DNA of 64,000 nucleotides, taken from NCBI GenBank assembly GCA_964016885.1, contig OZ024741.1, forward strand, positions 181,412,001-181,476,000, in the 5' to 3' direction. Both the position numbers and the translations under genes were made by a program. Shown here one piece after another: positions 13,974 to 58,989 of the stretch. Every line of letters starts with the position of its first letter. Within the stretch, counting starts at the first letter, position 1. The notes below the pieces were generated by a model. It was not told where the DNA came from. It saw nothing but the letters and a program-made list of their open reading frames with translations, and did not search any database. Origin of the DNA: Eledone cirrhosa. Taxonomy: Eukaryota.

Positions 13974-14482
13974 AACGAAACGAAATTAAATTTTAAGTTT
14001 AAGCGTCAGTCATACAAAAGTGAGTTACAAACGAAACGAAATTTAATTTCGGTTCGTTATTTGTTTTTATCGTCTCCGCTGAACCGGTGCGTACTCACAC
14101 TCTATGCAAATTAGTCTGCCCACTACTAATTTTCATAGAAAAGGCATATAACGATATGTGCTTTTACAATTCTCCAGAAAGGCCGGTAGATAGGTAAATA
14201 TTGCTGATGAGTTGTAACAACAACGAAACTAGTTCAATATTCCTTGTCTGGCTTTCTGGAGAATAGGGGGAAGGTGTTCCCCCGAAAAACCAGTATGACT
14301 CTAAAAACCGGTTTGTCTGTGTGTTTACATACAGAATAGCTGGGCCGCTCACTGTAAAGCGACCAGTGAAAGACTTGGTACACCTACATATGTATACGTG
14401 TGTGTATTCATATACACACTAGTATTTCAGTATGCATATGTAGATGTACATTTTTAACTTAATTATATATATATATATATAT

Positions 14483-16720: not shown

Positions 16721-17125
16721 ATGGATGTATATATAATGTATTTTTCAATACACTTTATGCTTAATTAAAAGCATTTTGAAGACCGTAAGCTATTGTTTTA
16801 AAGTAGTGACAAATTCACTCACTTTGATCTCAGCAAACAGGGGGAGATAAGCCGACAAGACTTGTTTCGCTTTGGTTGCATAATCAGCTCCTGATTATTT
16901 ACTAGATTTCTATAAGAATATAACATCAATGATCTCAGTAGACAGGTGGGGGTAGTTGGCCTTGATAAGCTTCAACCAAAGCGAAACAAGTCTTGTCGGC
17001 TTATCTCCCCTGTTTGCTGAGATCAAAGTGAGTGAATTTGTCACTACTTTAAAACAATAGCTTACGGTCTTCAAAATGCTTTTAATTAAGCATAAAGTGT
17101 ATTGCAAAATACATTATATATACAT

Positions 17126-20948: not shown

Positions 20949-21010
20949 TGTATGTATGTATGTATGTATGTATGTATGTATGTATGTATGTATGTATGTA
21001 TGTATGTATG

Positions 21011-21190
21011 TTGAAATCTGGTCGTTTGACTGAGTGATGTATATACACACATATACATACATTCAGTCAAACGACCAGATTTCAACCCCAACATCTACAA
21101 CAACAACACCGGCACTAATGTTTACAGCAACAACAGCTTCAGAATGAACTGAAATGAACATTTACAACAACAACAACAACAGCGGCATCA

Positions 21191-21221
<31 letters not shown>

Positions 21222-21625
21222 GGAAAAAAAACACAAAAAAAAACCTCAAAATAACAAAACACACACACACACGCACACAACACAACAACAACATCAACTG
21301 CCACCACCACCACTACCGCCGCCGCCATCACCATCACCAGCGACCGGGCCTTAAGAAAACAACTTCAATAACAATTTTTCTGCTTTTGGCACGGATCCAG
21401 CGACTGGCCCAGCGCATCACTGGTACTCTCTTTTGTTGACTCCGTGGGGATGGAAGGCAAGGTTGATCTCGGCGGGATTTGGGCTCAGAGCGTGGAGGGC
21501 CGTGACTCTATGCTGTAAAGCAATTATAATAATACTGGACTGTAGTACGATCGGCTTCAACTATACAAACTCTTGAAAGTCAACAGTTGACATAATCTTG
21601 TAATCTTGTATCAGTAATGACGGTA

Positions 21626-21659
<34 letters not shown>

Positions 21660-22099
21660 AAGTGAGTAGAGTAGCGTGTGTGTGTGTTTGTTTGTATGTA
21701 TGAGTGTTGCTGTGTGCGCGCATATGTATGCGTGTGTGTGTATGTCGTACGTATAAGTGTCAATAAGTGATTTTTTTTTTTTTTTTTTTTTTTTTTGCGC
21801 GGGGACAGAAATAATCGGGCAGGATGCCCGATCGCGCAGTTAAACCACTGGGAGTGAAGAACCCCTAGCCCTTGTCAGGGCATTTTTCTAGGAGAAGGCA
21901 TCTCAGGAAACTGGGTTATCTCCGACATAAAACCTGCGGCTCAGTAGTTACCGATGATGTTGATCTTTTCTTCTTTTCGGGTTATAGCTACTGTCGCTCA
22001 GAGAGTGGGATTGGCTCAGTGCACAGTCTTTCCTCACTTTAAAAATATTCGTCACGCACAGGCATTGCACGAGTGCATTAATAATTATCAATAGTGTAC

Positions 22100-22147
<48 letters not shown>

Positions 22148-25100
22148 TATTATTACTTTTTAAGAAATTTTTTTTTTTTACCAATTCAATGATGTTCCAG
22201 AACAATATAAAAGAGATAATTGGCAGTTTAGGTTCTGGAATAAAAAAGATCATTGGCAATAAGGGCAGGGGCCCCAGGTTATCACAGCCTGGGCCCGATC
22301 GTCATCGTGCCATTGCAATAGAGCCAAACAAGGCATTTAGTCTTGGCAGCTGGAACGTACGGACGCTGCTTGACAGGGATTCCTTGGGGCGTCCTGAACG
22401 AAGGACCGCTCTTGTTGCAAAGGAGCTTCGACGTTACGATCTTGACATCGTGGCTTTATCTGAGACGAGGCTAGCTGGAGATGGTCATCTTACGGAATTT
22501 TGTGGAGAATATACATTCTTCTGGAAAGGAAGAGATGAAGGAACCAGAAGAGAGGCTGGGGTAGGATTTGCTGTTAAGACTGTGCTTGTGAACAAATTAG
22601 AAGAATTCCCAGTAGGGATTAGTGAGCGTCTTATGTCCATGAGAGTTCCGCTGGACAAGGGAAGATATGCTACCCTGGTGAGTGTGTATGCTCCAACTAT
22701 GAGTTCTGTCGATGAGGAAAAGGTGTCCTTTTACCATGCCTTGAAAGGTGTTTTAAGAAATATCCCTCAGGCAGACAAAGTCATCGTGCTTGGTGACTTT
22801 AATGCTAGAGTGGGTAGGGATTTTAACACATGGAATGTAATTGGAAGGTATGGGGTGGGAAAGTGTAACAGCAATGGTATGCTCCTGCTGCAGATGTGTG
22901 AGGAACTGGATCTGTGTGTTACCAACACCATGTTCCAACAAAAGAACAAATTCAAGACCACATGGATGCATCCTGCATCTAAGGAATGGCATGTTTTGGA
23001 CTACGTCCTAGTCAGGATGCGTGACAGACAGGATGTGCAGTGTGTTCGTGTTCTTCGTGGAGCTGAGTGCTGGACGGACCACCGCCTGGTACGCGCAAAA
23101 GTGAAACTAATCACTAAACGTAAAATCCGGGCTCCTGGTGTTGCCCTGCCCAAAAGATTGAATGCTGCTCGTCTTAAGGATAAAAATGTGAAGAGGACAT
23201 TGGAAGAAGAGATGCAGGCTGCAGATCTTGGTGAGGATTGGCCGACACTTAAAAAGTCGGTTTATGATGTTGGCAGGCGTGTTCTGGGATTGGCGCAGAG
23301 GAAACATCAGGACTGGTTTGATGAGAATGATATACATATAGAAGACTTGTTGGCTGATAAGAGGCGTGCTCTGTCACGCTACTTGACGGCAAAACCACAG
23401 GAGAGGAATACGTTGCATGAGGAACTCAGGGACGTAAAATCACGTGTTAGGCGGAGTCTTTCTCAGATGAAGGATCAGTGGTGGAGTGAGAAGGCTGGTG
23501 AGATACACACTGCGTCTGATTCCAATAACACAAAGCTGTTGTAGTCAGTTGCGTGAGGTTTATGGACCGTCTTCTTCTCTGGCGACACCGCTTCGCAGCA
23601 AGGATGGCAAAGAACTTCTTCGTGACTCACAAGGAATTCTACGAAGGTGGCGAGAGCACTTTGATGATCTTTTGAATCAGCCGTCTGTCGTCAGTGAAGA
23701 TTTCCTCAATCTCATTCCAGAAAGTCCTGTGAAAGTAGCTCTCGCAGAACCTCCGACGCTTGTGGAGGTTGCAGTGGCTATTTCGAAGCTGAACAGTGGA
23801 AGATCTCCAGGTATGGATGGCATACATGCTGAGCTCCTACAATATGGTGGTGAGAGACTCCTGCAAAATCTTCACTCTTTGTTTGGCAGGATATGGGCTA
23901 ATGAATCCGTACCTGAGGACTGGAGAGATGCAGTAATGGTGGTCTTGTACAAGGGAAAGGGTAACAGGAATGATTGTGGGAACTACAGAGGTATATCATT
24001 GCTTTCTGTCGTAGGGAAAGTTTTATGTAGGGTGCTTCTGGACCGTCTGCTGACACACATTGCAGATTGTGTTCTTCCTGAAAGTCAATCTGGTTTTCGT
24101 GCTGGACGCGGCACTACTGATATGATCTAGACAGCTCCAGGAGAAGTGCATGGAACAAGGCTTGGATCTGTATCAGGTTTTTGTCGATCTGACAAATGCT
24201 TTCGATACTGTTAACAGAGATGCATTATGGAAGGTTCTCCAGAAACTTGGTTGCCCTGATAAGTTCCTTGCTTTAGTTAGGTCTTTCCATGACGACATGA
24301 AGGCTTGGGTTAATGTCGGAGGTAACATGTCGGAGCCTATCTCAGTAAAAAATGGAGTGAAACAGGGGGATATTCCAGCACCGACCCTGTTTGCCATATA
24401 CTTTGCAATGGTTTTCTGTATTGCATTCAGGAATTGCGAGCATGGTGTTTACATCCGATATCGAACCTCAGGCAGTATATTTAACATCAGATGCTTTGCT
24501 GCGAAGACAAAAGTATTTACATCAATCATAAGAGACCTCTTGTATGTATGCAGATGATTGCGATCATGTAGCGCACACAGAGAGTGATATGCAGCACATT
24601 TTGAATGCATTTTCTGAGCTTGCACTGCCCTAGGTCTGACTGTCAGTCTCAAGAAAACCGTCGTCATGTACCAACCTGCCCCTGGTAAGCAGTACACTGA
24701 ACCAAACATCTATGTGTATGGCAAACGACTTGGAGTGGTTGATCAGGATGAAGGATTCTAGAATACCAAAACAACTCTTTTATGGAGAGTTGTTTAAAGG
24801 AAAACGACCGCCACATAAACCAAAAAAGAGGTATAAGGATTCCTTGAAAGCCTTTCTGAAAGACGCTAACATCTCTGCTGATACATGGGAGAATATTGCT
24901 GCTGATCGTAATAAATGGAGAAAGACTGTATATGAGGTAAAAGTTGCCTTTGAGGCACCTCGAATCGCATACGAGAAAGTAAAGCAGGATGTGAGGAAGG
25001 GCATTGCTGTCGCACTTCCAGACGGCGAGGGTCCTCCTATGGTGCTGACATACAGCGTATGTGCGAGACTCTGCCTAAGCAAAGCTGGACTCGAAAGTCA

Positions 25101-25347
25101 TCTTCGCAGTCACAAAGTAAAACCAGTGGTTGACTACCAGGCTGCTGTTGGAGATGCTACTCATCATGCTTGCCAAACATGTGGTAGAGAATGTAAATCA
25201 GCAGGAGGGCTCAAGCGACATGCAAAAGTACACGAACTCCAACCACAGCCGACTATTCCCAGTGAATGTTTTGGTTGCCGACTCTGTGCAAGACATTTTA
25301 GATCATTGGCTGGGCTAAAAAGCCACATTCGATCGCAGCGCTGTTAG
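21011..25347 (+). mobile_element. RTE-clade LINE, decayed copy 1 (long leader, APE, RT, 3 C2H2 fingers)
   Basis: GSWNVRTL, ALSETR, GDFNARVG, TDHRLV (AP endonuclease); YRGISLL, QSGFR, GVKQGD (RT). Stops and frameshifts, plus an internal deletion near 24746. The coding part is 22189-25347. Confidence 0.93.
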
Positions 25348-25514
25348 TTGCTATCGTGTGTGTGCGAGTGTGTAGATATGCTTATGTGTGTGCGTGTTTG
25401 TGTGTGTATATATATATGTATGTGTATATTATTATACGTTGTTGTCGTTATTATTATTGTTGTTATTATTATTATTATTATTATTGTTATTAATGTATCT
25501 GTGTGTGTATATGT

Positions 25515-25558
<44 letters not shown>

Positions 25559-25565
25559 ATATGTG

Positions 25566-25596
<31 letters not shown>

Positions 25597-25639
25597 CTTT
25601 TTTTAAATTTTTTTATAAAATTTTTATTTTATTTTTATT

Positions 25640-25675
<36 letters not shown>

Positions 25676-25681
25676 GTTGTT

Positions 25682-28600
25682 ATTCCTTGAATCTCCGTCA
25701 TTGATGTTGGTTAACTGGAAAGTCCGTTGGATTGAATATCAAGCCACTACCTGCAGCCTCAGATATTCAGGACGTATCGGAGGGTTCTTGCTGTTCCAAG
25801 CAAGCATGCCTTTTGAAGCGTTCCAAAAAGCGTGAAGGGGTCGATTTTCTTTAACCATCCCTGGAAACTTTTGGAGATAGTCCCCAGTGCGCCTATGACA
25901 ATCGGGATCACTTTGACTTCATGGCAGTTCCAAATCCTTTTCACCTCCCACTTTAGGTCTTGGTATCGGTTAATTTTCTCCCTCTCCTTCTCTTGCACTC
26001 TCGTGTCGAACGGGCAGGCCACATCCACAATCAGACACGATCTTTTTTCTTTGTCCACAACCACCAGGTCAGGTCTATTGTGTTCCAGTTTTTTGTCCGT
26101 CTGTATCCTAAAATCCCACAGCACCTTCACCTGATTGTTCTCCACCACCGCCTCTGGCCTATGCTCATACCATTTCTCAGAATGTGGTAAATTGTTTACT
26201 TTGCACAGGTGCCAGTGGATCACCCTGCCCATCACATCGTGTCTCCAGCCCTTATAGTGGGTCTGGGCTAGGTGTTTACACTCGGACACAATGTGAGCCA
26301 CAGTCTCCTCTCTCTCTCCACAGATCCTGCACAGTGGGCTAGCCTCCTCCTTGTAGATATGGTGCTTCAACCACTTCGTTTTGAGGGCCTGCTCCTGCGC
26401 AGCCATTAGCATTCCTTCTGTAGCCTTTTTGAGGTCTCCTCTTCTCAACCAGTTCCATGTCTGTGGATCTCTAAATTCAGTTTTCTCAAAGAAGGTACTA
26501 TGAAGGGATTTTCCCTTAAGGCTGCTCTTCCTCCTTGATGTTATTTCCTCCTTGGACATCCCCTGGCCTACTGTCCCCTCCTTCAGTACGGTTCTGAGCA
26601 TTGGCTCCTTACTATAGGTCACGTATTTGTATAGGTTGTTTTTCTCCATCCGAACACAGTCCTCTATGCTGATAAGACCTCTTCCACCCTCAGATCTCCT
26701 TAGGTAGAGTCTATCGACATCACTCCTCTTGTGGAACATGTTGTAGATAGTCAATAGCTTCCTAGTCTTCCTATCCATTTCTTTTTGTTCAGCAACATTC
26801 CATCTCAGAATTCCCGCACTGTACCTAATAATAGACACAGCTCGGGAATTTACTGCGCTTATGGCATTTCTGCTGTTCAGATGTGACTTCAATACGCTCC
26901 TTACTCTCCGAATGTATTCAGTTCTTAACAATTCCTTCATTTTTTTGTTCTTTATGCCATCAGCCTCCAGAACGCCCAAATACTTGTATCCTTCCTCAGA
27001 GTCAATTTCCTTTATCATCTCACCTGTTGGTATCTGGATCCCGTTACTTCTGCTCAACCTACCCCTCTTCATCACAATGACTCCACATTTACCAATACCA
27101 AACTGCATACATATATCACTGCTGAAAATACGGACAGTGTGAACAAGCACATCCAACTCCTTCTCACTTTTCCCGAAGAGCTTAAGATCGTCCATGAAGA
27201 GGAGGTGATTGATGGTAAGCTCTCCCCTTCCCAACTTGTATCCTGCTCTCACTTTTCGCAGCATAATGGTCAAGGGCATCAGGGCAAGGACAAACAACAG
27301 AGGGGACAGGCTATCTCCCTGGAAGATACCTCTCTTGATCTTCACGCTTCCCAAGGATACTCCAGTTGATGTCAACTCTGTCTCCCAGGACCCCATACTC
27401 CTGCCTAACAACTGTCTGATGTTATCTGCCACCCTGAAGATCTCCAGGCTTTTGGTGATCCAGGAATGAGGCACCATGTCAAATGCCTTTCTGTAGTCTA
27501 TCCATCTCATGGCAAGATCAGTGTGTCTCCTCCTGCAATTCCCCATTACCATCTTATCAATAAGTAACTGGTCCTTTGTACCACGTGACTTCTTTCGGCA
27601 TCCTTTCTGTTCGTCCGGTAACAAGTTGTTTGTGTGGAGGTGATGGTAGATTTCCTCAGACACAATGCTCGTCAACAGTTTCCACATTACGGACAGACAT
27701 GTGATAGGTCTATAGTTGGTAACATCATTACCCTTGATTCGGTCTTTCATTATCAGAACTGTGGTACCTTTTGTCAACCACTCTGGCACCTCACCCGACA
27801 CCAAGCAGTCATTGAACATGGCCGTCAGCTTCGGGTGGAGGGATGTTAAATGTTTAATCCAATACCCCTGCACACCATCTGGGCCTGGTGATTTCCAGTT
27901 GGTTAGTTTTTTGGCCTGCCCCTTAAGAGTTTCAACTGTGATACTCAAATCAGTCTGTTGTTGTGCCTGCTCACCGATCTCCCTCTGTACTGTCTCAATC
28001 CACCCTGCCTGGGCATTGTGTCTAACATCCTGCTCCCATATTCCTCTCCAGAATGTTTTAGTTTGCTCCGCCCCAGGGATCAAGTCGTTGCCTCTTTCTT
28101 TCCCCTCAAGCTGTCCAAACAGCATCTTCTGGTTGTTGTCGAACATGCGGTTCTGTTTATACTGACTGACTCTGTTCTCGTATCGCCTGATTTTTGCACT
28201 CTTTGCTACAATGCGTTGCTTCAGTTCCTCTATGATAATATTTAGCTTTTTCCTCCTAGTTTTGTATTTTATTTCCAGTCTATTTTTAGTGCCTATGTTT
28301 TTTAGTGTCCCATTCAGTAGTGACTCAAGCTTTCCTATGTCATTTCTCATTTCCCCGATTTGCCCACTCAGTCGCTTCTTCCACCACGGCTCTGCTCTTT
28401 CTTGTCTGTTGTTTCCTCTCGCTTTTATACCAAGTAGTTTCCTCACCGTATTTGCTGTTGCTTTGAGGATATTGTTGCACTGGTGAAGGCTCCTCGCCTC
28501 AAGGTATGGGATGACTTTGTTTACCTTAGCTGTTGTTTCTTTTAACTTTTTCCTGTCTACAAATCTTAGGTTCATAGGTCTCCCACTATCATTGTTCAAT

Positions 28601-29460
28601 TCATCTACCACTAAATTTAGGATGTCAACCGAATCTTGTCCTAGCCCGTCAGCATTCATCTCCTCAGTGGCCGTATCTCTGTTCCAGGTATTATTTATCT
28701 CAGTATTCAGATCATTGTCTGCTTCGGGTGGTTCCTCCGTTCTCAGGACCTCTTCACCTTCATTTCCCACTGGCTCGCTTGTCTGGCATACTACACCCGC
28801 CATCTCCAAGCCATTCTCTCTGCTCAGTTCCTCCAGTTCCAGCTCGCTTATCCATCCATTAGTTCTTATTACCCGAGCCTGCCCGGCCAATTTTTGTTCA
28901 TCTAATTTAAATAAACCAATCTCGTTCCAGATGTTATGCATCCGTCTCCTGTAGCCCCTCTCCTTGGGGTTACTTTTCAGGTAACATTGCATAACAGTTC
29001 TATTCAATTCTTTCGTCCAGTTGGTTCTGGCCCCTTTCCTTCTTCTCCTTCCTCCAACATCAGCAGTATTTGGTTGACAGTCAGGTTCCTGCTGCTGAGC
29101 CAGGGGGCACCTGTTGGGTGAGAGTCTGTCACATGACGTTCTAGTCTCCATTTCACCGTTATTCGAACTGTTTATGTTCGATATTTAAACACTCTTATCG
29201 AGGATTGGCGAATGTATGGTTACATATCCATCTGTGGATCCGCCATTCCACTTGGCCCTTGTGTGGCATTATCACCACGCTGTATACGAACACACATAAA
29301 CAAACAAACACACAGGCAGAAAGGGCCCCAAAAATGAATAAGCATAAGTTTCATTGTAATGTAGTGTTCGAATGTCTGACTTAGTTTTTGTTTTTTAAGT
29401 TTTAGTTTTTCCCCCCTCTTCTCTGTCCGTCCGCCTGCTTCTCTCTTCATTCTTATTTTC

Positions 29461-30036: not shown

Positions 30037-30096
<60 letters not shown>

Positions 30097-30111
30097 CGTT
30101 ATTATTGTTGT

Positions 30112-30471
30112 TATTCCTTGAATCTCAGTCATTGATGTTGGTTAACTGGAAAGTCCGTTGGAATGAATATCAAGCCACTACCTGCAGCCTCAGATATTCA
30201 GGACGTATCGGAGGGTTCTTGCTGTTCCAAGCAAGCATGCCTTTTGAAGCGTTCCAAAAAGCGTGAAGGGGCCGATTTTCTTTAACCATCCCTGGAAACT
30301 TTTGGAGATAGTCCCCAGTGCGCCTATGACAATCGGGATCACTTTGACTTCATGGCAGTTCCAAATCCTTTTCACCTCCCACTTTAGGTCCTGGTATCGG
30401 TTAATTTTCTCCCTCTCCTTCTCTTGCACTCTCGTGTCGAACGGGCAGGCCACATCCACAATCAGACACGA
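30112..30471 (-). mobile_element. 5'-truncated second copy of the same Dong element
   Basis: Near-identical to 25682-26041 and flanked by (TAT)n on both sides. Confidence 0.95.
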
Positions 30472-30564
<93 letters not shown>

Positions 30565-30574
30565 TTTTTTTTTT

Positions 30575-30760
30575 CTCGTGCAATGGCCATACTCGATAAC
30601 GAGGGGGCAGCGATCATCATGTATGTATGTATGTATGTCATGAACATTGCTTGTTCAGGATATGTTACAGGTCCGTGTAGCTGGCTATAGCCTAAAGGTA
30701 CACCATTTTCTGTAATCTGACAAGCGATTGTAATACTCTTAGCAGAGTTTGCAGCCACCA
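30575..30760 (+). mobile_element. Two short LINE/SINE 3'-tail fragments ending in (TATG)n
   Basis: GGCCATACTCGATAACGAGGGGGCAGC (also at ~58866-58918) and ...GAGTTTGCAGCCACC-ATGT resemble the tail of the 31118-31703 element. Confidence 0.6.
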
Positions 30761-31055: not shown

Positions 31056-31117
31056 TATGTATGTATGTATGTATGTATGTATGTATGTATGTATGTATGT
31101 ATGTATGTATGTATGTA

Positions 31118-31703
31118 CTGGTAACATGTATCCCAGTACAACCTGTCCCATGGTCGGGTCATTGGCGACTAAACTGGCAACCCTACCAAGGTTTCTTGGT
31201 GAGGAGGGTGACTTTGGACATCCTGCAGGACTAAAAACAAAACCTGTCAAAGAGCAAAGGAGCTCTTAAGAGTCAATGGCCATCCAAAATCACTGGGAGA
31301 GATGACCCCTTAGCCTTTGTCAAGGCAGAATTCTAGGAGAAGGAAAACTCTGATATAACACCTGCAACCTTGATGGTATCCAATGATGTTGACTTGTTCT
31401 TCTTTTTGGTAAATATCATCTTGGTTAAGAGAGTGGGATTGGCTTTGTGCAGTGCTTTTGCTCACTATAAAAGCTTCATGGCACAGGCATTGCTTTATAT
31501 CTGGAGATCCCTCTGCACTTGTCATCACATCGTACCATGGGCCCAGCACTATGTGTCAGTAATTGTCACAAGTGTAGTGTTTGTACCAGAGTTTTCAAGT
31601 CGCTGGCTGGACTAAAAAGTCACACTCGTTCAGCGCATCGGTAGGGGTTCTCCTACATGGATATAAAGTAGTGGCCGTACTCGAAAACGAGTTGGCAGCC
31701 ACC
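31118..31703 (+). mobile_element. Non-autonomous RTE-derived element (family B), copy 1
   Basis: Shares leader motifs with the RTE LINE 5' UTR (CTAGGAGAAGG, AGAGAGTGGGATTGGCT, GCACAGGCATTGC). No RT; has a hairpin tail followed by ATGT repeats. Repeated at 50409-51014. Confidence 0.8.
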
Positions 31704-31887
31704 ATGTATGTGTGTATGTATATTTGAAATATGTCCTTCATAAAGCAAAAAAAACACACACAATAATAATCGATCACTTGAGAAAATCGGACATGTAAAA
31801 AAGTAGATAGAAGTACCTTTGTCTACATTTTTCCATCACCAGGTGCACTTTACCCGATTTTTGCAACTATTATTTTATACGTATCGA

Positions 31888-36290: not shown

Positions 36291-36370
36291 AATAGGAACG
36301 AGTAGGACCCCGACGGCTGAGCTCAAGCCGTCGAAACGGCTTGAGCTCAGCCGTCGGGGTCCTACTCATT

Positions 36371-36374
<4 letters not shown>
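36291..36374. repeat. GC-rich ~40-bp fold-back with nested palindromes
   Basis: ATAGGAACGAGTAGGACCCCGACGGCTGAGCTCAAGCCGT-CGAA-ACGGCTTGAGCTCAGCCGTCGGGGTCCTACTCATTCCTAT. Confidence 0.9.
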
Positions 36375-38759: not shown

Positions 38760-38923
38760 TGGGGATCCTTTTCTTTGTTTTTGTGCCTCTCCTTTGTTCT
38801 GTCCTACGCCATTTTGTTTCTGTGTGTAATTCTGTTATCTTATATAACAAATGGCGTAGGACAGAACAAAATGGCGTAGGACAGAACAAAGGAGAGGCAC
38901 AAAAACAAAGAAAAGAATCCCCA

Positions 38924-48135: not shown

Positions 48136-50408
48136 TTATTGTAGAGTCAGGTTTTACAAAATATTCTGAGTGGAAACAGAAACTGTGTGTGTCTTTAGTC
48201 TGTTAATGGTTTTGTTTACACATGTCTAAAAAGCAGCGTATTTTTGTTGATGTCAATTTATGTCTTGTAGCTTAGCGATTCGACAAATAAAGGCCGATAA
48301 AACAATTACTAGACTGAAATAATTAGTGTGATACTTCTAGTTATTATAGTTCAGTGATTTTAAACTCTATTGGACAATGTAATCACTACAAGAATAGTTT
48401 GTCTCTTTCGAACACTATTAATACTATACACACATTAAGGCACTACAAGCATCACCAGTCTTAGTAGTCACATTTTAAAGACCCTGTTATCAAAACCAGA
48501 CTCTATACACATTTACACTATGAACAAGTTAAGCAAATCCTCATTTGAAGATCGGATTTTATAATTATTTCTAGAAACTATAGTAATGCATATCAATTTA
48601 TAGAAACCTTCGCTCTCTACAAAAAATAGCATACTATATAAAGACTTTGCGATACTACTTGTCCTAAGGCCAATTAAATAATGAATTATACGACCAGATT
48701 GTAGGTTAAAAGATCAAATGCACTGTATATATCTAAGTATCTTTGACCTCATAGCTTTAGGGAATATTAAACTGATGTTTTGTGTGAAGTAAAACGCCTA
48801 ATGTTCATAAAGGTTTTAACTGGTTGACTTTACAGAAAATACTATTTTAGATGCTATTCGGTTCCCATGACCAAGCCACAACTTTCAAATGCCTATTCCA
48901 TTTGGTTTCAAAAATAACCATGGGGAGAGGAGAACTGCATGTCAGTTTAAGAATCAACAGAATTGTATAACACCCGAAGAAATAACTCCAGGCAATAAGC
49001 ATGATTTCCAAGAACTTTGATGGGTGAGGAATTAAATCTGTCAGATTCATTTTCTCTTCTTATATTACATAAATAAACTCTAAAATGGTGTCCGTTTCGA
49101 CTAGGTTGATTAGTCGGTTCACTACTCTGATGATATAAATCGATCAATATTTCAAACCTCAATGCATTTATATCGCTCTTCTGAAATTTTATATATTCAA
49201 TAACGTTTTCGTGGATTTTCGAAAATAACATGTTCACCAACGTGGAATCATTATCTAAGATATTTCAATAATCTGGCAAAATCTGTAGATATAGTAACGT
49301 AGCAACATAAACGCATATTACTATTAAAGTATGACACCAGGTCAACATGAGTAGCAGCTGCATAAGCAACAGCAACAGCAGCAGTCGTAGCTTCATCAAC
49401 TGAACAATGCCATCAGCAAGAGCAGTATTGACAGAATTAGTAGCAATAACTTCCTATTACTCTATTAAGTAATATACATGCACATCACCAGCAAAAGTGT
49501 AATTGTGCCACACGCAAAATATACTATGACGCAAGTTATTTTAGTTTTAGGCAATTTGTTTTGTATACAGTATTGTTTAGAAACTGTAATGCTGCACTTG
49601 ATAAACATAAGTACAATGAGATGGTTATTTTTTATAATCTTATTTTTCTGTACTGACTACTGGAATACACAATTTAGTTAAACGTGGGCGTAATTCCTAT
49701 GAATCGAACTGGTTAGAGATCACATTAAACTGTTACCTGGCATTTAAATGACATTAAAACTATATTGATTGCTTTTTTTCATTCGTAAATTAATAATATT
49801 TGACTAACTGATGGGGAATGCGACCAAAGCAATTTAATTACTTAACGTGTATCATTGCCAAATCGTTCAATATTAATGTAGTTAGCTTCGTTTCATCAAG
49901 AGCGCAGAACTTTGCCTATTTCTCATCGAAATATATTGATTTACTTCATATATAGACGAGTAATTCTTTTTAGGGGTGTGTTACAGTAAATTGAGTTCAA
50001 CCCAACTATAATAATTTCTGACGTAAGCACAAGCCACCAATTTTGGAGAGCGGAGTTTCGTCGATTAAATAGTTCTCAGAATTTGAGTGGTACTTCGTAA
50101 AGAAGAAAATCAAAGTTAATTTCGGTAGGATTTGAACTCAGTACATAAAGGGTAGAAATAAATACTGTAATTTTGTCCCACGGTCTTACGATGTTGACAA
50201 TATTCATGAAACCTGCTTCTAGAACTGGGAATATATGACATTCATGCTTTTCATCGAGATATTTGCAATATGAAATACGTCCAATTAGGGATCGAAAACA
50301 AATTCTTCCTGATAGAACTATTAAATGTATGTATGTATGTATGTATGTATGTATGTATGTATGTATGTATGTATGTATGTATGTATGTATGTATGTATGT
50401 ATGTATGT

Positions 50409-51014
50409 CAGGTCACCAGTTGGTGCTACTGGTAACATGTATCCCAGTACAACCTGTCTCATGGTCGGGTCGTTGACGACTAAACTGGCAACTCCACCAA
50501 GGTTTCTTGGTGAGGAGGGTGACTTTGGACATCCTGCAGGACTAAAAACAAAACCTGTCAAAGGGCAAAGGAGCTCTTAAGAGTCAATGGCCATCCAAAA
50601 TCCCTGGGAGAGATGACCCCTTAGCCTTTGTCAAGGCAGAATTCTAGGAGAAGGAAAACTCTGATATAACACCTGCATCCCTGATGGTATCCAATGATGT
50701 TGACTTGTTCTTCTTTTTGGTAAATATCATCTTGGTTAAGAGAGTGGGACTGGCTTTGTGCAGTGCCTTTGCTCACTATAAAAGCTTCACGGCACAGGCA
50801 TTGCTTTATATCTGGAGATCTCTCTGCACTTGTCGTCACATGGTACCATGGGCCCAGCACTATGTGTCAATGATTGTCACAAGTGTAGTGTTTGTACCAG
50901 AGTTTTCAAGTCACTGGCTGGACTAAAAAGTCACACTCGTTCAGCGCATCGGTAGGGGTTCTCCTACATGGATATAAAGTAGTGGCCGTACTCGAAAACG
51001 AGTTGGCAGCCACC
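50409..51014 (+). mobile_element. Non-autonomous RTE-derived element (family B), copy 2
   Basis: Highly similar to 31118-31703; long (TATG)n before and after. Confidence 0.85.
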
Positions 51015-51106: not shown

Positions 51107-51494
51107 ATGTCCCACTCTCTTAACCAAGATGATATTTACCAAAAAGAAGAACAAGTCAACATCATTGGATACCGTCAGGGTTGCAGGTGTTATATCAGAG
51201 TTTTCCTTCTCCTAGAATTCTGCCTTGACAAAGGCTAAGGGGTCATCTTTGCTCACTATAAAAGCTTCACGGCACAGGCATTGCCTTATATCTGGAGATC
51301 TCTCTGCACTTGTCGTCACATGGTACCATGGGCCCAGCACTATGTGTCAGTAATTGTTACAAGTGTAGTGTTTGTACCAGAGTTTTCTAGTCGCTGGCTG
51401 GACTAAAAAGTCACACTCGTTCAGCGCAACGGTAAGGGTTCTCCTACATGGATATAAAGTAGTGGCCGTACTCGAAAACGAGTTGGCAGCCACC
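51107..51494 (+). mobile_element. Family B copy 3 with a 5' inversion
   Basis: ~51110-51248 is the reverse complement of ~50611-50750, followed by the forward 3' half. Confidence 0.85.
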
Positions 51495-51799
51495 ATGTAT
51501 GCATGTATGTATGTATATGGAAGTTACACAAATATTTTCGTATACTTTACCAGAGCAATCCTTATTTATATTTTACATTTTACATTCTACATTTACTTAC
51601 ATCTCAATATAACATGGCTAAAATTCAAATTTAGCAAAGAGAAGAAAACGGACAAATGAACTAGATACATCTCACTGGCCCCCGCCACCACGATAACGTC
51701 TACACTCTCTCCCCGACCATCACATTTACATTTACACATGTCATTACCCTATCTAGACTAAAGTCACCGACCTCTACTCTGTGTTGAATGTGTGTATAT

Positions 51800-54700
51800 A
51801 TATATATATGTATGTATATGTGTGTATATACATCATTCAGTCAAACGACCAGATTTCAACCCCAACATCTACAACAATAACACCGGCACTAATGTTTACA
51901 GCAACAACAGCTTCAGAATGAATTGAAATGAACATTTACAACAACAACAGCGGCATCAAACGATTAAAAAAAACAAAACCCAACAAACAAACAAAAAAAC
52001 TCAAAATAATAAAACACACACACACACACGCACACAACACAACAACAACATGAACTGCCACCACCACCACCACCACCACCGCCGCCATCACCATCACCAG
52101 CGACCGGGCCTTAAGAAAACAACTTTAATAATAATTTTTCTGCTTTTGGCACGGATCCAGCGACTGTCCCAGCGCATTACTGGTACTCTCATCCGTGGGG
52201 ATGAAAGGCAAGGTTGACCTCGGCGGGATTTAAGCTCAGAGCGTGGAGAGCCATAGCTCTATGCTGTAAAGCAATTATAATAATACTGGACTGTAATACG
52301 AACGGCTTCAACTATACAAACTCTTGAAAGTCAACAGTTGACATAATCTTGTATCAGTAATGACGGTAATATATATATATATGTGTGTGTGTGTGTAAGG
52401 GAGTAGCGCGTGTGTGTTTGTTTGTATGTATGAGTGTTGCTGTGTACGCGCGTATGTATGCGCGTGTGTGTATGTCGTACGTATAAGTGTCAATAAGTGA
52501 GTTTTTTGTTTTTTTTGCGCGGGGACATAGAAATAATCGGGCTGGATGCCCGATCGCGCAGTTAAACCACTGGGAGTGAAGAACCCCTAGCCCTTGTCAG
52601 GGCATTTTTCTAGGAGAAGGCATCTCAGGAAAATGGATTAACTCCGACATAAAACCTGCGGCTCAGTAGTTACCGATGATGTTGATCTTTTCTTCTTTTC
52701 GGGTTATAGCTACTGTCGCTCAGAGAGTGGGATTGGCTCAGTGCACAGTCTTTCCCCACTTTAAAAATATTCGTCACGCACAGGCATTGCTCGGTACCTG
52801 GCGGCGGTCCTCGAGGCAGCCGGTTTCGGGCCCGTTTTCAGGAGTTGGATCGCAGCAATTTACAGCGACATCTGCTCAGTTGTGAGGGTGAACGGTCACC
52901 TGTCGCATCCGTTCAGCATCATGCGCTCAGTCCGCCAGGGTTGTCCCCTCTCGTCCCACTTGTACGTATTGGCTCTCGAGCCGTTACTGCACAAACTGGG
53001 GGCGATGAGGGGCGTCCCACGCGAACTAGGATGCGGGAAATCCGAGTTGGCTTACGCTGACGACATCACCGTGGTGGTGTCGAGCACCCGACACGTCCAG
53101 ATGCTCGGCACCGCTCTCAAGGAATACGAAGCGGTGACAGGAGCAAAGATAAACCAGGAAAAGTCGGTGGGCTTGCAGCTCGACACCTGGAGAAGCAAGT
53201 CCATGCCGTTCGACAGCGTCGTGAGGCGTTGGACGGACGGACCGGTTAAATTGCTCGAGATCTGGTTCGAACCGGACCTCCAGATGGAGAATAACTGGAA
53301 CGAGGTGACGAGCAGGGTGGCCTCCCTCACCCAGAAATGGGCCGAGAAGAAGCTGTCCCTGAAAGGCCGGGCGGAGGTGGCGAATGCGTACATCGCATCC
53401 GTCATCTGCTACCGCCTCACCGTCGTCCCTTGCTCCAGCCCAACTCTCACCAAAATGGAGCGCCTCCTCTTCCGCTTTTTGTGGAAGGGACGCGTTCCCA
53501 TGGTCAGACACTCCATCTGCTGTCAACACCCGTTGCGTGGAGGACTGGGCATGCCATGGCTGATGATGCGCAAACATGCGCTGAGGCTGCGACATCTCTG
53601 GTGCTTCCTTGATGGTGAACAGGTGTGGTCGCCGTTCGCCAGGCACGTTTTCCCACAGCTTGTCTCCTTGACGGAGCTGCAGTCCTGGGTCAGAAAAAGA
53701 CCGAGGGATAGCGCTTGGAAACTGGAATGTCTCCAGGTGCTCACTGCCCTCTGCCAGCTGGGCACCAGTATCGGTGGAACATCCACCTCGGCGTTCTATA
53801 GAGGACTAGTAGAGGGGATGAGCGACGACATTCTCGGAGAGATCCTGGGCGTCGAAGAAGATCAGCTGTTTGCTCTCTTCTGGAGAACTTTCAGCTCGAG
53901 GCCTTTGGATAACTTCCAAAAATCCCTGGCCTGGCAGTGCTACCGGGGATTGCTGCCGGTTCGAGATAAGCTCTACAGGCACGGAAGTACCGTCAGCCGA
54001 GCCTGTCCGAGATGCGCGCAGGGCGACGAAACCGTCGTGCACGCACTCGTTCAGTGCCCGAGCATTGCTGACTTGTGGAGCTATGTCGAACAGTTGCTGT
54101 CGCGTGTAGGACTGATCTGGTTATCGACTGAGTCCATTGTGCAGATGGTCTCGCCGTCTTCCTTCGAGGAAGAAGGGCAGGCGGTTTTCATCTGCCTGGT
54201 GGCCATGGCGAAAGAGATTGTGTGGACAAGGTTAAAAGGGTTAAAGACAGACACTTTCCTCTTCGGCGAATCCCTAATTAACTTTTTCAAGTTTCACTTG
54301 AAGAGGAAAATCAGGGTGGAGAGGCAAGTGCTGCTTTCTAGCAAGTTTGTTGAAAGGTGGGTGAATGTAGCGAGAATGGTCCGAGTGAACGGGACCACTC
54401 TGAATATACGTCTGTAGTTTGAGAAATGGAAAAATTGAGAGAGGGCGCTTGCCCTGGTGGTCAGGGTGGCCGTGGTCTTTTGTGTGGTTTTCGCCACTAG
54501 TAACCCTTGGAGGTTTCCTCCCTATTGGGGAATGTTTCATTGTTTTAATTTTCATTTTTATTGTTTATATATGTTTCTATGTCCTTCTTTTTCTTTTCTT
54601 ATATAAATAATATAAAATATTTAGACGCACAAAACCCACATCGTACCGTCCTGTACCGTCCTGTGCCGTCTGTAATGTTTTTCTTGATGTCAGCCCTTGT

Positions 54701-57700
54701 GGCCAATAAAGAAATCATTAATAATTATTAATAGTGTATTATTATTATTATTATTATTATTATTACTTTTTTTTTTTCCCAATTCAATGATGTTCCAGAA
54801 CAATATAAAAGAGATAATTGGCAATTTAGGTTCTGGAACAAAAAAGATAATTGGCAATAAGGGCAGGGGCCCCAGGTTATCACAGCCTGGGCCCGCTCGT
54901 CATCGTGCCATTGTAATAGAGCCAAACAAGGCATTTAGTCTTGGCTGCTGGAACGTACGGACGCTGCGTGACAGGGATTCCTTGGAGCGTCCTGAACGAA
55001 GGGCCGCTCTTGTTGCAAAGGAGCTTCGACATTACGATCATGACATCGTGGCTTTATCTGAGACGAGGTTAGCTGGAGATGGTCATCTTACAGAATTTTG
55101 TGGAGAATATACATTCTTCTGGAAAGGAAGAGATGAAGGAACCAGAAGAGAGGCTGGGGTAGGATTTGCTGTTAAGACTGTTCTTGTGAATAAATTAGAA
55201 GAATTCCCAGTAGGGATTAGTGAGCGTCTTATGTCCATGAGAATTCCGCTGGACAAAGGAAGATATGCGACCCTGGTGAGTGTGTATGCTCCAACTATGA
55301 GTTCTGTCGATGAGGAAAAGGTGTCCTTTTACCATGCCTTGAAAGGTGTTTTAAGAAATAACCCTCAGGCAGACAAAGTCATCGTGCTTGATAACTTTAA
55401 TGCTAGAGTGGATAAGGATTTTAACACATGAAATGTAATCGGAAGGCATGGGGTGGGAAAGTGTAACAACAATGGTATGCTCCTGCTGCAGATGTGTGAG
55501 GAGCTGGATCTGTGTGTTACCGACACCATGTTCCAACAAAAGAACAAATTCAAGACCACATGGATGCATCTTGCATCTAAGGAATGACATCTTTTGGACT
55601 ACGTCCTAGTCAGGATGCGTGACAGACAGGATGTGCAGTGTGTTCGTGCTCTTCGTGGAGCTGAGTGCTGGACGGACCACCGCCTGGTACGCGCAAAAGT
55701 GAAACTAATCACTAAACGTAAAATCCGGGCTCCTGGTGTTGTCCTGCCCAAAAGATTGAATGCTGTTCGTCTTAAGGATAAAAATGTGAAGAGGACATTG
55801 GAAGAAGAGATGCAGGCTGCAGATCTTGGTGAGGATTGGCCGACCCTTAAAAAGTAGGTTTATGATGTAGGCAGGCGTGTTCTGGGATTGGTGCAGAGAA
55901 AACATCAGGACTGGTTTAATGAGAATGATGTACATATAGAAGACTTTTTGGCTGATAAGAGGCGTGCACTATCACGCTACTTGACGGCAAAACCACAGGA
56001 GAGGAATACGTTGCACGAGGAACTCAAGGATGTAAAATCATGTGTTAGGCGGAGTCTTTCTCAGATGAAGGATCAGTGGTGGAGTGAGAAGGCTGGTGAG
56101 ATAAAAACTGCGTCAGATTCCAATAACACAAAGGTGTTGTACAGTCTCTTGCGTGAGGTTTATGGACCGTCTTCTTCTCTGGTGACACCGCTTCGCAGCA
56201 AGGATGGCAAAGAACTTCTTCGTGACTCACAAGGAATTCTACGAAGGTGGCGAGAGCACTTTGATGATCTTTTGAATCAGCCGTCTGTCGTTAGTGAAGA
56301 TTTCCTCAATCTCATTCCAGAAAGTCCTGTGAAAGTAGCTCTCGCAGAACCTCCGACGCTTGTGGAGATTGCAGTGGCTATCTCGAAAGGTCTCCAGGTA
56401 TGGATGGCATATATGCTGAGCTCCTACAATATGGTGGTGAGAGACTCCTGCAACATCTTCACTCTTTCTTTGGCAGGATATGGGCTAATGAATCCGTACC
56501 TGAGGACTGGAGAGATGCAGTAATGGTGGTCTTATACAAGGAAAAGAGTAACAGGAATGATTGTGGGAACTACAGAAGTATATCATTGCTTTCTGTCGTA
56601 GGGAAAGATTTATGTAGGGTGCTTCTGGACCGTCTGCTGACACACATTGCAGATTGTGTTCTTCCTGAAAGTCAATCTGGTTTTCGTGCTGGACGCGGCA
56701 CTACTGATATGATCTTCTCAGCTAGACAGCTCCAGGAGAAGTGCATGGAACAAGGTTTGTATCTGTATCAGGTTTTTGTCGATCTGACAAAAGCTTTCGA
56801 TACTGTTAACAGAGATGCATTATGGAAGGTTCTCCAGAAACTTGGTTGCCCTGATAAGTTCCTTGCTTTAGTTAGGTCTTTCCATGACGACATGAAGGCT
56901 TGGGTTAATGTCGGAGGTAACATGTCGGAGCCTATCTCGGTAAAAAATGGAGTGAAACAGGGAGATATTCCAGCACCGACCCTGTTTGCCATATACTTTG
57001 CAATGGTTTTCTGTATTGCATTCAGGAATTGCAAGCATGGTGTTTACATCCGATATCGAACCTCAGGCAGCATATTTAACATCAGGCGTTTTGCTGCAAA
57101 GACAAAAGTATTTACATCAATCATAAGAGACCTCTTGTATGCAGATGATTGCGATCTTGTAGCGCACACAGAGAGTGATATGCAGCACATTTTTAATGCA
57201 TTTTCTGACGCTTGCACTGTCCTAGGATTGACTGTCAGTCTCAAGAATACCGTCGTCATGTATCAACCTGCCCCTGGTAAGCAGTACACTGAACCAAATA
57301 TCTATGTGTATGGTAAACGACTTGGAGTGGTTGATCAGTTTGTCTACCTGGGAAGCACTGTCAATCGATACAGCAACCTTGATAGTGAAATCTCACTTGG
57401 TATTAGGAAAGCAAGTGATGCTTTCGGAAAGCTAGAAAGGTGACTCTGGGGTCGGCGAAACATATGCAGGAGGACAAAGGTAAAGGTGTACAAGGCATTT
57501 GTGCTCTCTTGTCTTCTTTATGCCTGCGAGACCTGGGTCACATATCGACACCACCTTAAGCAATTGGAGCGTTTCCATCAGATGTGTCTCAGACGGATCC
57601 ATGGCGTTCACTGGAGGGACCACATCAGTGATGTCGAGATTTTGGAAAGCTCTATGTGTGACAGTATAGAAGCTCTTGTGCTTAAGCAACAACTCCGTTG

Positions 57701-58863: not shown

Positions 58864-58989
58864 TTTTCTCGTGCAATGGCCATACTCGATAACGAGGGGG
58901 CAGCCATTATGTATGTATGTATATGCATACATACATTATATACGTATACGCAGACACATACACAGGCACACACACACATATATATATTG

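Follow-up and report, generated by a model that had tools for sequence, protein, structure and literature searches.

The window, a stretch of 64,000 nt from the Eledone cirrhosa genome (contig OZ024741.1, positions 181,412,001 to 181,476,000), contains copies of two retroelement families: family A, an RTE-type LINE, and family B, an element of roughly 600 nt that has sharp ends and no ORF. Positions are those of the window, loci elsewhere are designated L, and papers are cited from extracts of their text. The copies are as follows:

21051..22188, plus strand: 5' UTR of family A copy 1 (A1); many copies have the start at 21051 in common, and the ATG is at 22189
22189..25347, plus strand: single ORF of A1, which encodes an endonuclease, a reverse transcriptase and C2H2 zinc fingers and is interrupted here by frameshifts
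30576..30618, plus strand: 3' end of A1, with 3' arm 30576-30585, terminal hairpin 30592-30603 and tetranucleotide tail, displaced by a minus-strand LINE insertion
51826..52792, plus strand: 5' UTR of family A copy 2 (A2), with the module described below at 52568-52790, from sequence comparison within the window
31116..31706, plus strand: family B copy 1, 5'-truncated and without ORF, module at 31291-31487, from sequence comparison and a covariance model
50407..51003, plus strand: family B copy 2, full length, module at about 50600-50800, from sequence comparison and a covariance model
51110..51512, no single strand: family B copy, partly inverted and truncated, from blastn and a covariance model

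In the 3.0-Gb assembly that was searched, family A has 1918 first-look candidates and family B has 4528. The A1 leader is part of the family A LINE: in 19 of the 30 loci examined, it continues into the endonuclease ORF. Two features of an RTE-type LINE are present: a single ORF in which an AP endonuclease is followed by a reverse transcriptase, and a short terminal hairpin followed by a microsatellite tail. Here, the reverse transcriptase and zinc fingers were scanned on the second copy. By sequence similarity, the ORF is mostly 36–69% identical to ORFs found behind the same module in other elements and, compared by layout alone, it is similar to that of the published RTE-2_OV (PMC9115989). 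The 3' motif common to A1 and the related family C ends 16 of the 19 other A copies that reach the stop codon, and one more has the motif with a small deletion. The first ~730 nt of the A1 5' UTR consist of a SINE-like piece and microsatellites, which are unrelated to what families B and C carry in their 5' part. Copy A2 is cut inside its 5' arm by the 3' fragment of an unrelated LINE (about 52793–54690); its ORF resumes near 54720 and its 3' end is at 58869.

Several further features of these copies and their surroundings were recorded. The start of family A is an inverted duplication of about 50 nt (21010–21086), which recurs in many copies. Both UTRs contain microsatellite and poly-T tracts (22090–22185 and 25350–25600), into which other LINEs and SINEs have repeatedly inserted. 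The 3' UTR of A1 holds a 1141-codon LINE ORF with a C-terminal nuclease-like region (25620–29184, minus strand) and a second LINE 3' fragment (30050–30654, minus strand). The insertion in A2 is the 3' part of an L1/Tx1-like LINE, and similar insertions lie near the same point in L012 and L022. Elsewhere in the window, two hammerhead-like matches to Rfam HH9 on the plus strand, 14186–14257 (38.6 bits, E 3e-6) and 16945–17019 (25.6 bits), fall below the gathering score and possibly come from Penelope-like elements, while long perfect inverted repeats at 38781–38902 and 36293–36374 are probably miniature DNA transposons.

The subject of this study is the segment 21850–22072 of the A1 leader. On our structural model, this is a widely conserved structured RNA module of RTE 5' UTRs, larger than the first-pass annotation had it, with a predicted fold of two pseudoknots around a long hairpin. 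Its parts are:

21850..21888, plus strand: domain I; a pseudoknot is predicted from S1 (21850-21855 with 21861-21865, one bulge) and S2 (21856-21861 with 21883-21888)
21868-21872 with 21877-21881, plus strand: domain I linker hairpin, inside the pseudoknot linker
21891..21923, plus strand: small hairpin after domain I (21891-21894 with 21920-21923)
21940..21997, plus strand: domain II, long hairpin, the earlier helix 2 (21943-21950 with 21985-21992; 21951-21954 with 21978-21981)
22004..22059, plus strand: domain III, a predicted pseudoknot whose stem pairs 22004-22009 with 22033-22038; it has a short inner stem, and loop 22019-22022 pairs with 22056-22059 past an A-rich linker
22063..22072, plus strand: 5' arm, able to form ten Watson-Crick pairs with this element's own 3' end, read directly from the sequence

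The first-pass annotation had placed four copies of the leader in the window and aligned that of the LINE with family B, and both statements hold: the A leader is 69% identical to B across some 228 nt, with a blastn E value near 1e-20 in a comparison confined to the window. Moreover, a covariance model built from 14 metagenome-derived relatives only gives the four window copies 51–63 bits and the partly inverted B copy 23 bits; the next match has 11 bits. Retention of the leader in an element with no ORF is likewise borne out, and it extends to several ORF-less families. The description of the leader as an unnamed RNA needs a qualification. Rfam searches over the module returned no family reaching significance, but the sequence itself has been published as a conserved part of RTE 5' UTRs (Kojima 2018, PMC5786205). 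In the supplementary alignments of that paper, domain I corresponds, by eye, to the Ceph sequence over the latter's 3' half, and domains II and III match RTE 5' UTR pieces aligned to WALLSI and IdioSINE2 (such as RTE-9_LCh, RTE-1_MD, RTE-2_NV). The module lies inside the 5' UTR and not at its end, which also matches the published domain: it lies 190–430 nt within the element, and copies extend upstream of it.

Relatives were collected by several routes. Pattern searches of the genome led to the ORF-less families C, D, G and J, the LINEs E and H, and a domain I element, F. The module was found in the ORF-less families B, C, D and G of this genome and in RTE elements from metagenome contigs, and short derivatives elsewhere (L200/L232, L207-type) also keep it. 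A search with a domain III pattern gave 48 metagenome loci and a single locus in 596 Gb of prokaryote genomes, with an endonuclease match downstream in 21 of the 49. L215 and L235 were dropped as chance bacterial matches of this pattern. The sole match in a prokaryote genome, L244, has the same upstream features and a tetranucleotide tail; its sequence suggests a stray RTE-derived piece, that is, animal DNA in that assembly. In L198, L202, L209, L214, L224, L227, L238 and L167, a further non-coding stretch is conserved some 330 nt beyond the knot, in the interval that separates domain III from the endonuclease; it is absent from A.

A selected cis-acting RNA domain had been proposed for the leader, and this is supported by covariation in a larger alignment, which backs helix 2, helix 3 and the 3' pseudoknot between loop and downstream strand. 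The alignment has 21 rows drawn from 27 cluster representatives of 51 stretches. L222, L219, L198, L203, J170 and G166 were left out as truncated, deleted or duplicate and L220 because of a knot mismatch; L217 was added, and other members of the respective clusters stood in for L240, L236, L239, L243, L242 and C. In the five-helix model, 82.6% of cells are paired as compared to 73.6 ± 0.9% after shuffling, and 81 cells are changed on both sides as compared to 33, where the shuffles ignore relatedness; structures slid along the alignment reach 35–43%. The 14 metagenome rows alone give 86.1% versus 80.1% paired and 32 versus 14 cells changed on both sides, whereas neither the number of pairs showing a both-side change (20/500) nor that of pair types (45/500) rises clearly over the shuffles.

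A test of the long hairpin that needs no alignment is stronger than these shuffle controls. Identity among the hairpin arms is 42%, yet an arm pairs with its own partner at –9.95 kcal/mol as compared to –4.9 kcal/mol with a foreign one (0 of 20,000 permutations). The own arm ranks first in 10 of 21 hairpins and last in one (L226), and the length is 127–132 nt in 21 of 21 representatives. In the domain III knot of the 21-row alignment, pair 97:133 is C-G in 13 rows, U-A in six and U-G in one, and pair 98:132 is G-C in 18 and A-U in three. All five knot pairs are kept in 43 of the 49 pattern matches, the pattern having left two knot pairs free while the other three and most of helix 3 were fixed. 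As both variable knot pairs are CpG sites, some of the wobbles are read as decay. Single-sequence folding is unremarkable (z –1.49 for A and +1.08 for B), RNAalifold recovered helix 3 only from the 21 rows, and an unbiased scan of column pairs ranked the true pairs among many chance pairs. For the last two reasons, the structure tested was set by hand from single-sequence folds.

Domain I required the largest revision. The earlier helix 1 consisted of an inner hairpin within an outer pairing. The inner 5-bp hairpin stands, with a C-G pair in A that is U-A in B and in a U-G state in C. The outer pairing does not: although it can form with five of five pairs in A, B, C and G, the other families have three to five as the best of 12 possible matches. 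Here, the 3' strand is an invariant anchor and the 5' strand changes on one side only, with no both-side change. These bases are probably better modelled as a second pseudoknot, whose S2 ends just before the anchor. The domain I pseudoknot is present in 13 of 19 sequences, 11 of which are related metagenome families, as compared to three expected and a maximum of eight in 1000 shuffles. Further support comes from published elements (Sepioth-SINE1, AviRTE, RTE-1_NV, RTE-6B_HRo, RTE-7_AMi and RTE-2_Gav), where S2 has, by eye, at least six different sequences with all seven pairs kept. A wobble is present in S2 of A1 and A2 where L002 has six Watson-Crick pairs. Only three S2 pairs remain in the very abundant family B, so that the earlier helix 1 pairing may be an alternative there. 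In the small hairpin that follows, the loop holds an inserted hairpin of 17 nt in families A and C, and the third pair is A-U as compared to G-C in published RTE sequences (by eye).

Immediately after the domain III knot lies a strand that is complementary to the 3' end of the same element. In A1, 22063–22072 pairs perfectly, by eye, with 30576–30585, which directly precedes the terminal hairpin; in full-length A copies, the whole ORF separates the two arms. In family B copy 1, 31488–31501 is complementary to 31660–31673 over 14 pairs, two of them wobble. Arm sequences are distinct by family among the examples noticed, which were seen by eye and not sampled: 10 bp in A and C, 14 in B and 13 in G (L162). 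Also by eye, LINE H (L167) has arms of 8 bp across a full-length LINE, while its derivative L168 has nine with one pair changed on both sides; L208 has 11 and L213 has 10. The published RTE-3_AMi and RTE-1_PSi have nine each, with one pair changed on both sides between them. The pairing is weak, by eye, in J (L170) and L232. Simple arithmetic over 20 by 20 offsets puts the chance of a 10-pair match near two fixed landmarks at about 4 in 10,000.

In families B, C, D, G and J, which have no ORF, part of a 5' UTR is joined to an RTE-type 3' end. They are like the bipartite non-autonomous RTE elements Bov-A, WALLSI3 and RTE-N in layout (PMC5786205, PMC7245038). Both parts are common to one autonomous LINE in two cases: C with A, and L168 with L167. 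Family C combines the module of A with the 5' part of B and a 3' end homologous to that of B; both ends of B are homologous to those of C, and a search for a LINE with B's own module found none. Judging from these matches, family B is not derived from A, and the ORF-less relative that has A's module and 3' end is C. Since A and C have both of these in common, we infer that C is a bipartite derivative of an A-like LINE, and that present-day A has had its 5' portion replaced.

What does the module do? On balance, and by a modest degree, we favour the view that it is part of an RNA signal that is recognised by the element's own endonuclease/reverse transcriptase. If the two arms paired in full-length RNA, the 3.2-kb ORF between them would be extruded as a loop, and the module would lie next to the 3' end, the point at which reverse transcription begins. 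The element protein would then bind the joint 5' and 3' structure. Were the enzyme to jump over the loop, bipartite, ORF-less elements would arise, such as C from an A-like LINE, and these would spread only while the fold is kept. Joint recognition is favoured because ORF-less elements keep the fold and because each family keeps its own 5'–3' stem. To initiate reverse transcription, the R2 protein attaches to a UTR element with a pseudoknot (PMC12222951), and the likeness lies in the use of such an element as the protein's template handle; R2 differs in that it belongs to another LINE group and uses its 3' UTR, with no sequence or fold homology to the module shown. The 3'-terminal hairpin of RTEs has been described (PMC6007223) and A, B and C likewise end in a small hairpin before a microsatellite tail; the extract of that paper covers the 3' hairpin only and describes no 5' UTR partner. 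Gene-writing templates based on RTE-1_MD carry both UTRs (PMC13708176).

Some observations count against template recognition. The module is divisible: LINE E has domain I twice, in tandem, and is without domain III, LINE H has no recognisable domain I, Ceph-SINEs retain domain I only, and S2 of B is short. Derivative breakpoints are not all near the knot, with 3' ends also at +198, +381, +403, +655 and +794. In plants, Au-like SINEs share their 3' terminus with RTEs, and this region was considered essential by the authors (PMC6007223). Bipartite elements could arise from the pairing alone, with no selection acting on the module, and the compensatory changes may date from LINE ancestors that are absent from the set found.

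The first-pass annotation had offered two functions, an IRES-like translation element or recruitment of the reverse transcriptase. The second fits better than the first, because the distance and frame from knot to endonuclease vary while the stretch complementary to the 3' end directly follows the knot. An IRES would load ribosomes on uncapped RTE RNA, and ORF-less elements would keep it to sit on ribosomes and so capture the nascent protein, as is supposed for Alu; we regard this as unlikely. In its favour, the module holds two knots in about 210 nt and is like a dicistrovirus intergenic (IGR) IRES in size, in multi-knot layout and in its final knot, formed by a hairpin loop that pairs past an A-rich linker; the topology of domain III is similar to that of the anticodon-mimic knot of those IRESs. 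An AUG occurs 4–5 nt after the knot in many metagenome copies, and of 27 A copies, 14 have the knot and the ORF in one frame, on either side of a variable poly-T. Leaders of LINEs that begin with ribozymes promote translation (PMC6765202, PMC8501958), which also speaks for an IRES. However, a dicistrovirus IGR IRES is followed by a fixed reading frame and none lies directly after the module's last knot. The endonuclease motif is 81–463 nt past the knot, with frames 0, 1 and 2 in 4, 7 and 4 of the 15 true matches (two locus pairs being near-duplicates, and two further, spurious matches set aside), and only one of these decayed copies is open. In addition, the conserved stretch downstream is without codon periodicity (0.218, 0.246, 0.221), A, B, H, L208, L212 and L238 lack a nearby AUG, and the loop words of IGR IRESs are not in place.

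The frame spread, the indels and the lack of periodicity also led to rejection of an encoded peptide, an upstream ORF and a fixed frame after the knot. The peptide was the alternative that the earlier annotation had itself named; it cannot explain the conservation, because the A/B indels are 17, 1 and 2 nt and the module is kept in families without an ORF.

It is rather improbable that the main task of the fold is to protect or localise the RNA (stability, export or escape from silencing) through host proteins, with the element protein not bound to it. Domains have been swapped and duplicated among elements, as also described in PMC5786205, and a fold that is likely to block nucleases is modelled upstream in the same UTR, both of which would suit such a role; it would not account for the pairing of the post-knot arm with the 3' end in each family. 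Conservation at the level of DNA, whether as an internal promoter or factor sites as Kojima proposed or by passive inheritance, with an incidental structure, has a very small probability. Several unpaired words are nearly invariant, and decay at the two CpG knot pairs can mimic part of the pattern. Nevertheless, pairing is kept where helix arms are down to 42% identity, and S2 of domain I is entirely different across families and still fully paired, so that DNA-level or passive conservation is largely refuted as the sole cause.

The slimmest chance of all is given to one domain being an unrecognised self-cleaving ribozyme, for which we note that the strand order of domain I is that of P1-P2-P4 in the HDV fold. 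RTE elements with HDV-like or twister ribozymes at their 5' ends have been reported (PMC5786205, PMC8501958), but the module is internal, with copies extending upstream, and has no P3/L3 core; the nested double knot, P3/L3, P1.1 and catalytic C of HDV-like ribozymes were not found in it, an HDV-like descriptor gave only scattered, non-recurring matches, and hammerhead, twister and pistol yielded neither core motifs nor an Rfam match over the module.

Template recognition thus remains our preferred reading of the module. A second structure is predicted at the exact 5' end of family B, upstream of the module:

50407..50463, plus strand: 5' head of family B, predicted layout like that of a class 1a xrRNA, from Rfam alignment and cross-family comparison
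50409-50413 with 50452-50456 and 50414-50418 with 50421-50425, plus strand: head helices P1 and P2, followed by the single C at 50426
50427-50432 with 50444-50449, plus strand: head helix P3; loop 50436-50439 with 50460-50463

Copies of B begin at 50407, 98 of 124 heads in the loci examined keep the first bases, and the preceding DNA varies and is mostly microsatellite. Heads of this kind begin B and its relatives L131, L162, L170, L172, L178, L217, L225 and L237. The LINE family E (L171, L172, L178), which bears the head of B, is decayed and distant from A. The 5' ends of A and other RTEs (H, L208, L228) are different.

Judged on sequence, heads in B, C, G, J, LINE E and the metagenome RTE loci L217 and L225 have the published features of flavivirus subclass 1a xrRNAs (PMC7527734, PMC8374639). 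These are a three-way junction, a P1 of 5 bp, a P3 of 4–8 bp, a variable P2, which differs and stays paired in B, C, G, J, L217 and L225, and a lone C separating P2 from P3 (the same in 10 of 10 heads aligned, with T in one further copy). Alignment to the Rfam consensus places the bases for the U.A-U triple and the first-knot G-C, and a second knot would link loop L3 to the strand after P1. The latter has four pairs in B, where it is a palindrome, and 5–7 in C, E and L225; L217 has one both-side change and one mismatch. P1 and P3 hardly vary, and therefore give no covariation. Unlike the flavivirus xrRNAs, the B head is the 5' end of an animal-genome retroelement. Its Rfam match to flavivirus xrRNA RF01415 is 20.7 bits (E 0.42) against a threshold of 54.5, and was seen in a 606-nt search only, being unreported in other Rfam searches. 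A generic xrRNA descriptor was lax, as it also matched about a dozen unrelated places, while a flavivirus-type P3 head pattern had no match in this genome and the head pattern had none in viral contigs. Were it to block 5'–3' decay, the head would trim read-through transcripts to unit length. In other LINEs, this is a job given to ribozymes.

Taken together, these models permit a wider and more tentative proposal, with the chances somewhat against it as a whole. RTE RNA may be a closed-loop template, in which a double-pseudoknot 5' module docks on the 3' end as the protein's site and, in one lineage, the 5' end is set by a flavivirus-type xrRNA and not by a ribozyme. The module is known as sequence from Kojima 2018 and apparently not as structure. 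The extract of PMC5786205 deals in sequence similarity only, suggests transcription-factor binding and proposes no RNA fold, pseudoknot or 5'–3' pairing. In a literature search that took in neither patents nor subscription journals, none of the matches listed concerned the module fold, the 5'–3' pairing or a retroelement xrRNA. A 2021 review has xrRNAs in cellular RNAs as still to be found (PMC8374639), so that a working xrRNA heading these elements, if true, would be a notable first. RTE-1_MD is an RNA gene-writing system whose UTRs have been tuned by screening (PMC13708176) and, because it has the same domain III sequence, a structural model would be of direct use there. Why RTE makes bipartite elements is stated as unknown in the extract of PMC5786205, and the 5'–3' pairing offers a testable reason for these frequent derivatives. 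The module model also offers a testable reason for a second point left open there, the reappearance of these stretches of 5' UTR as the bodies of SINEs in distantly related animals.
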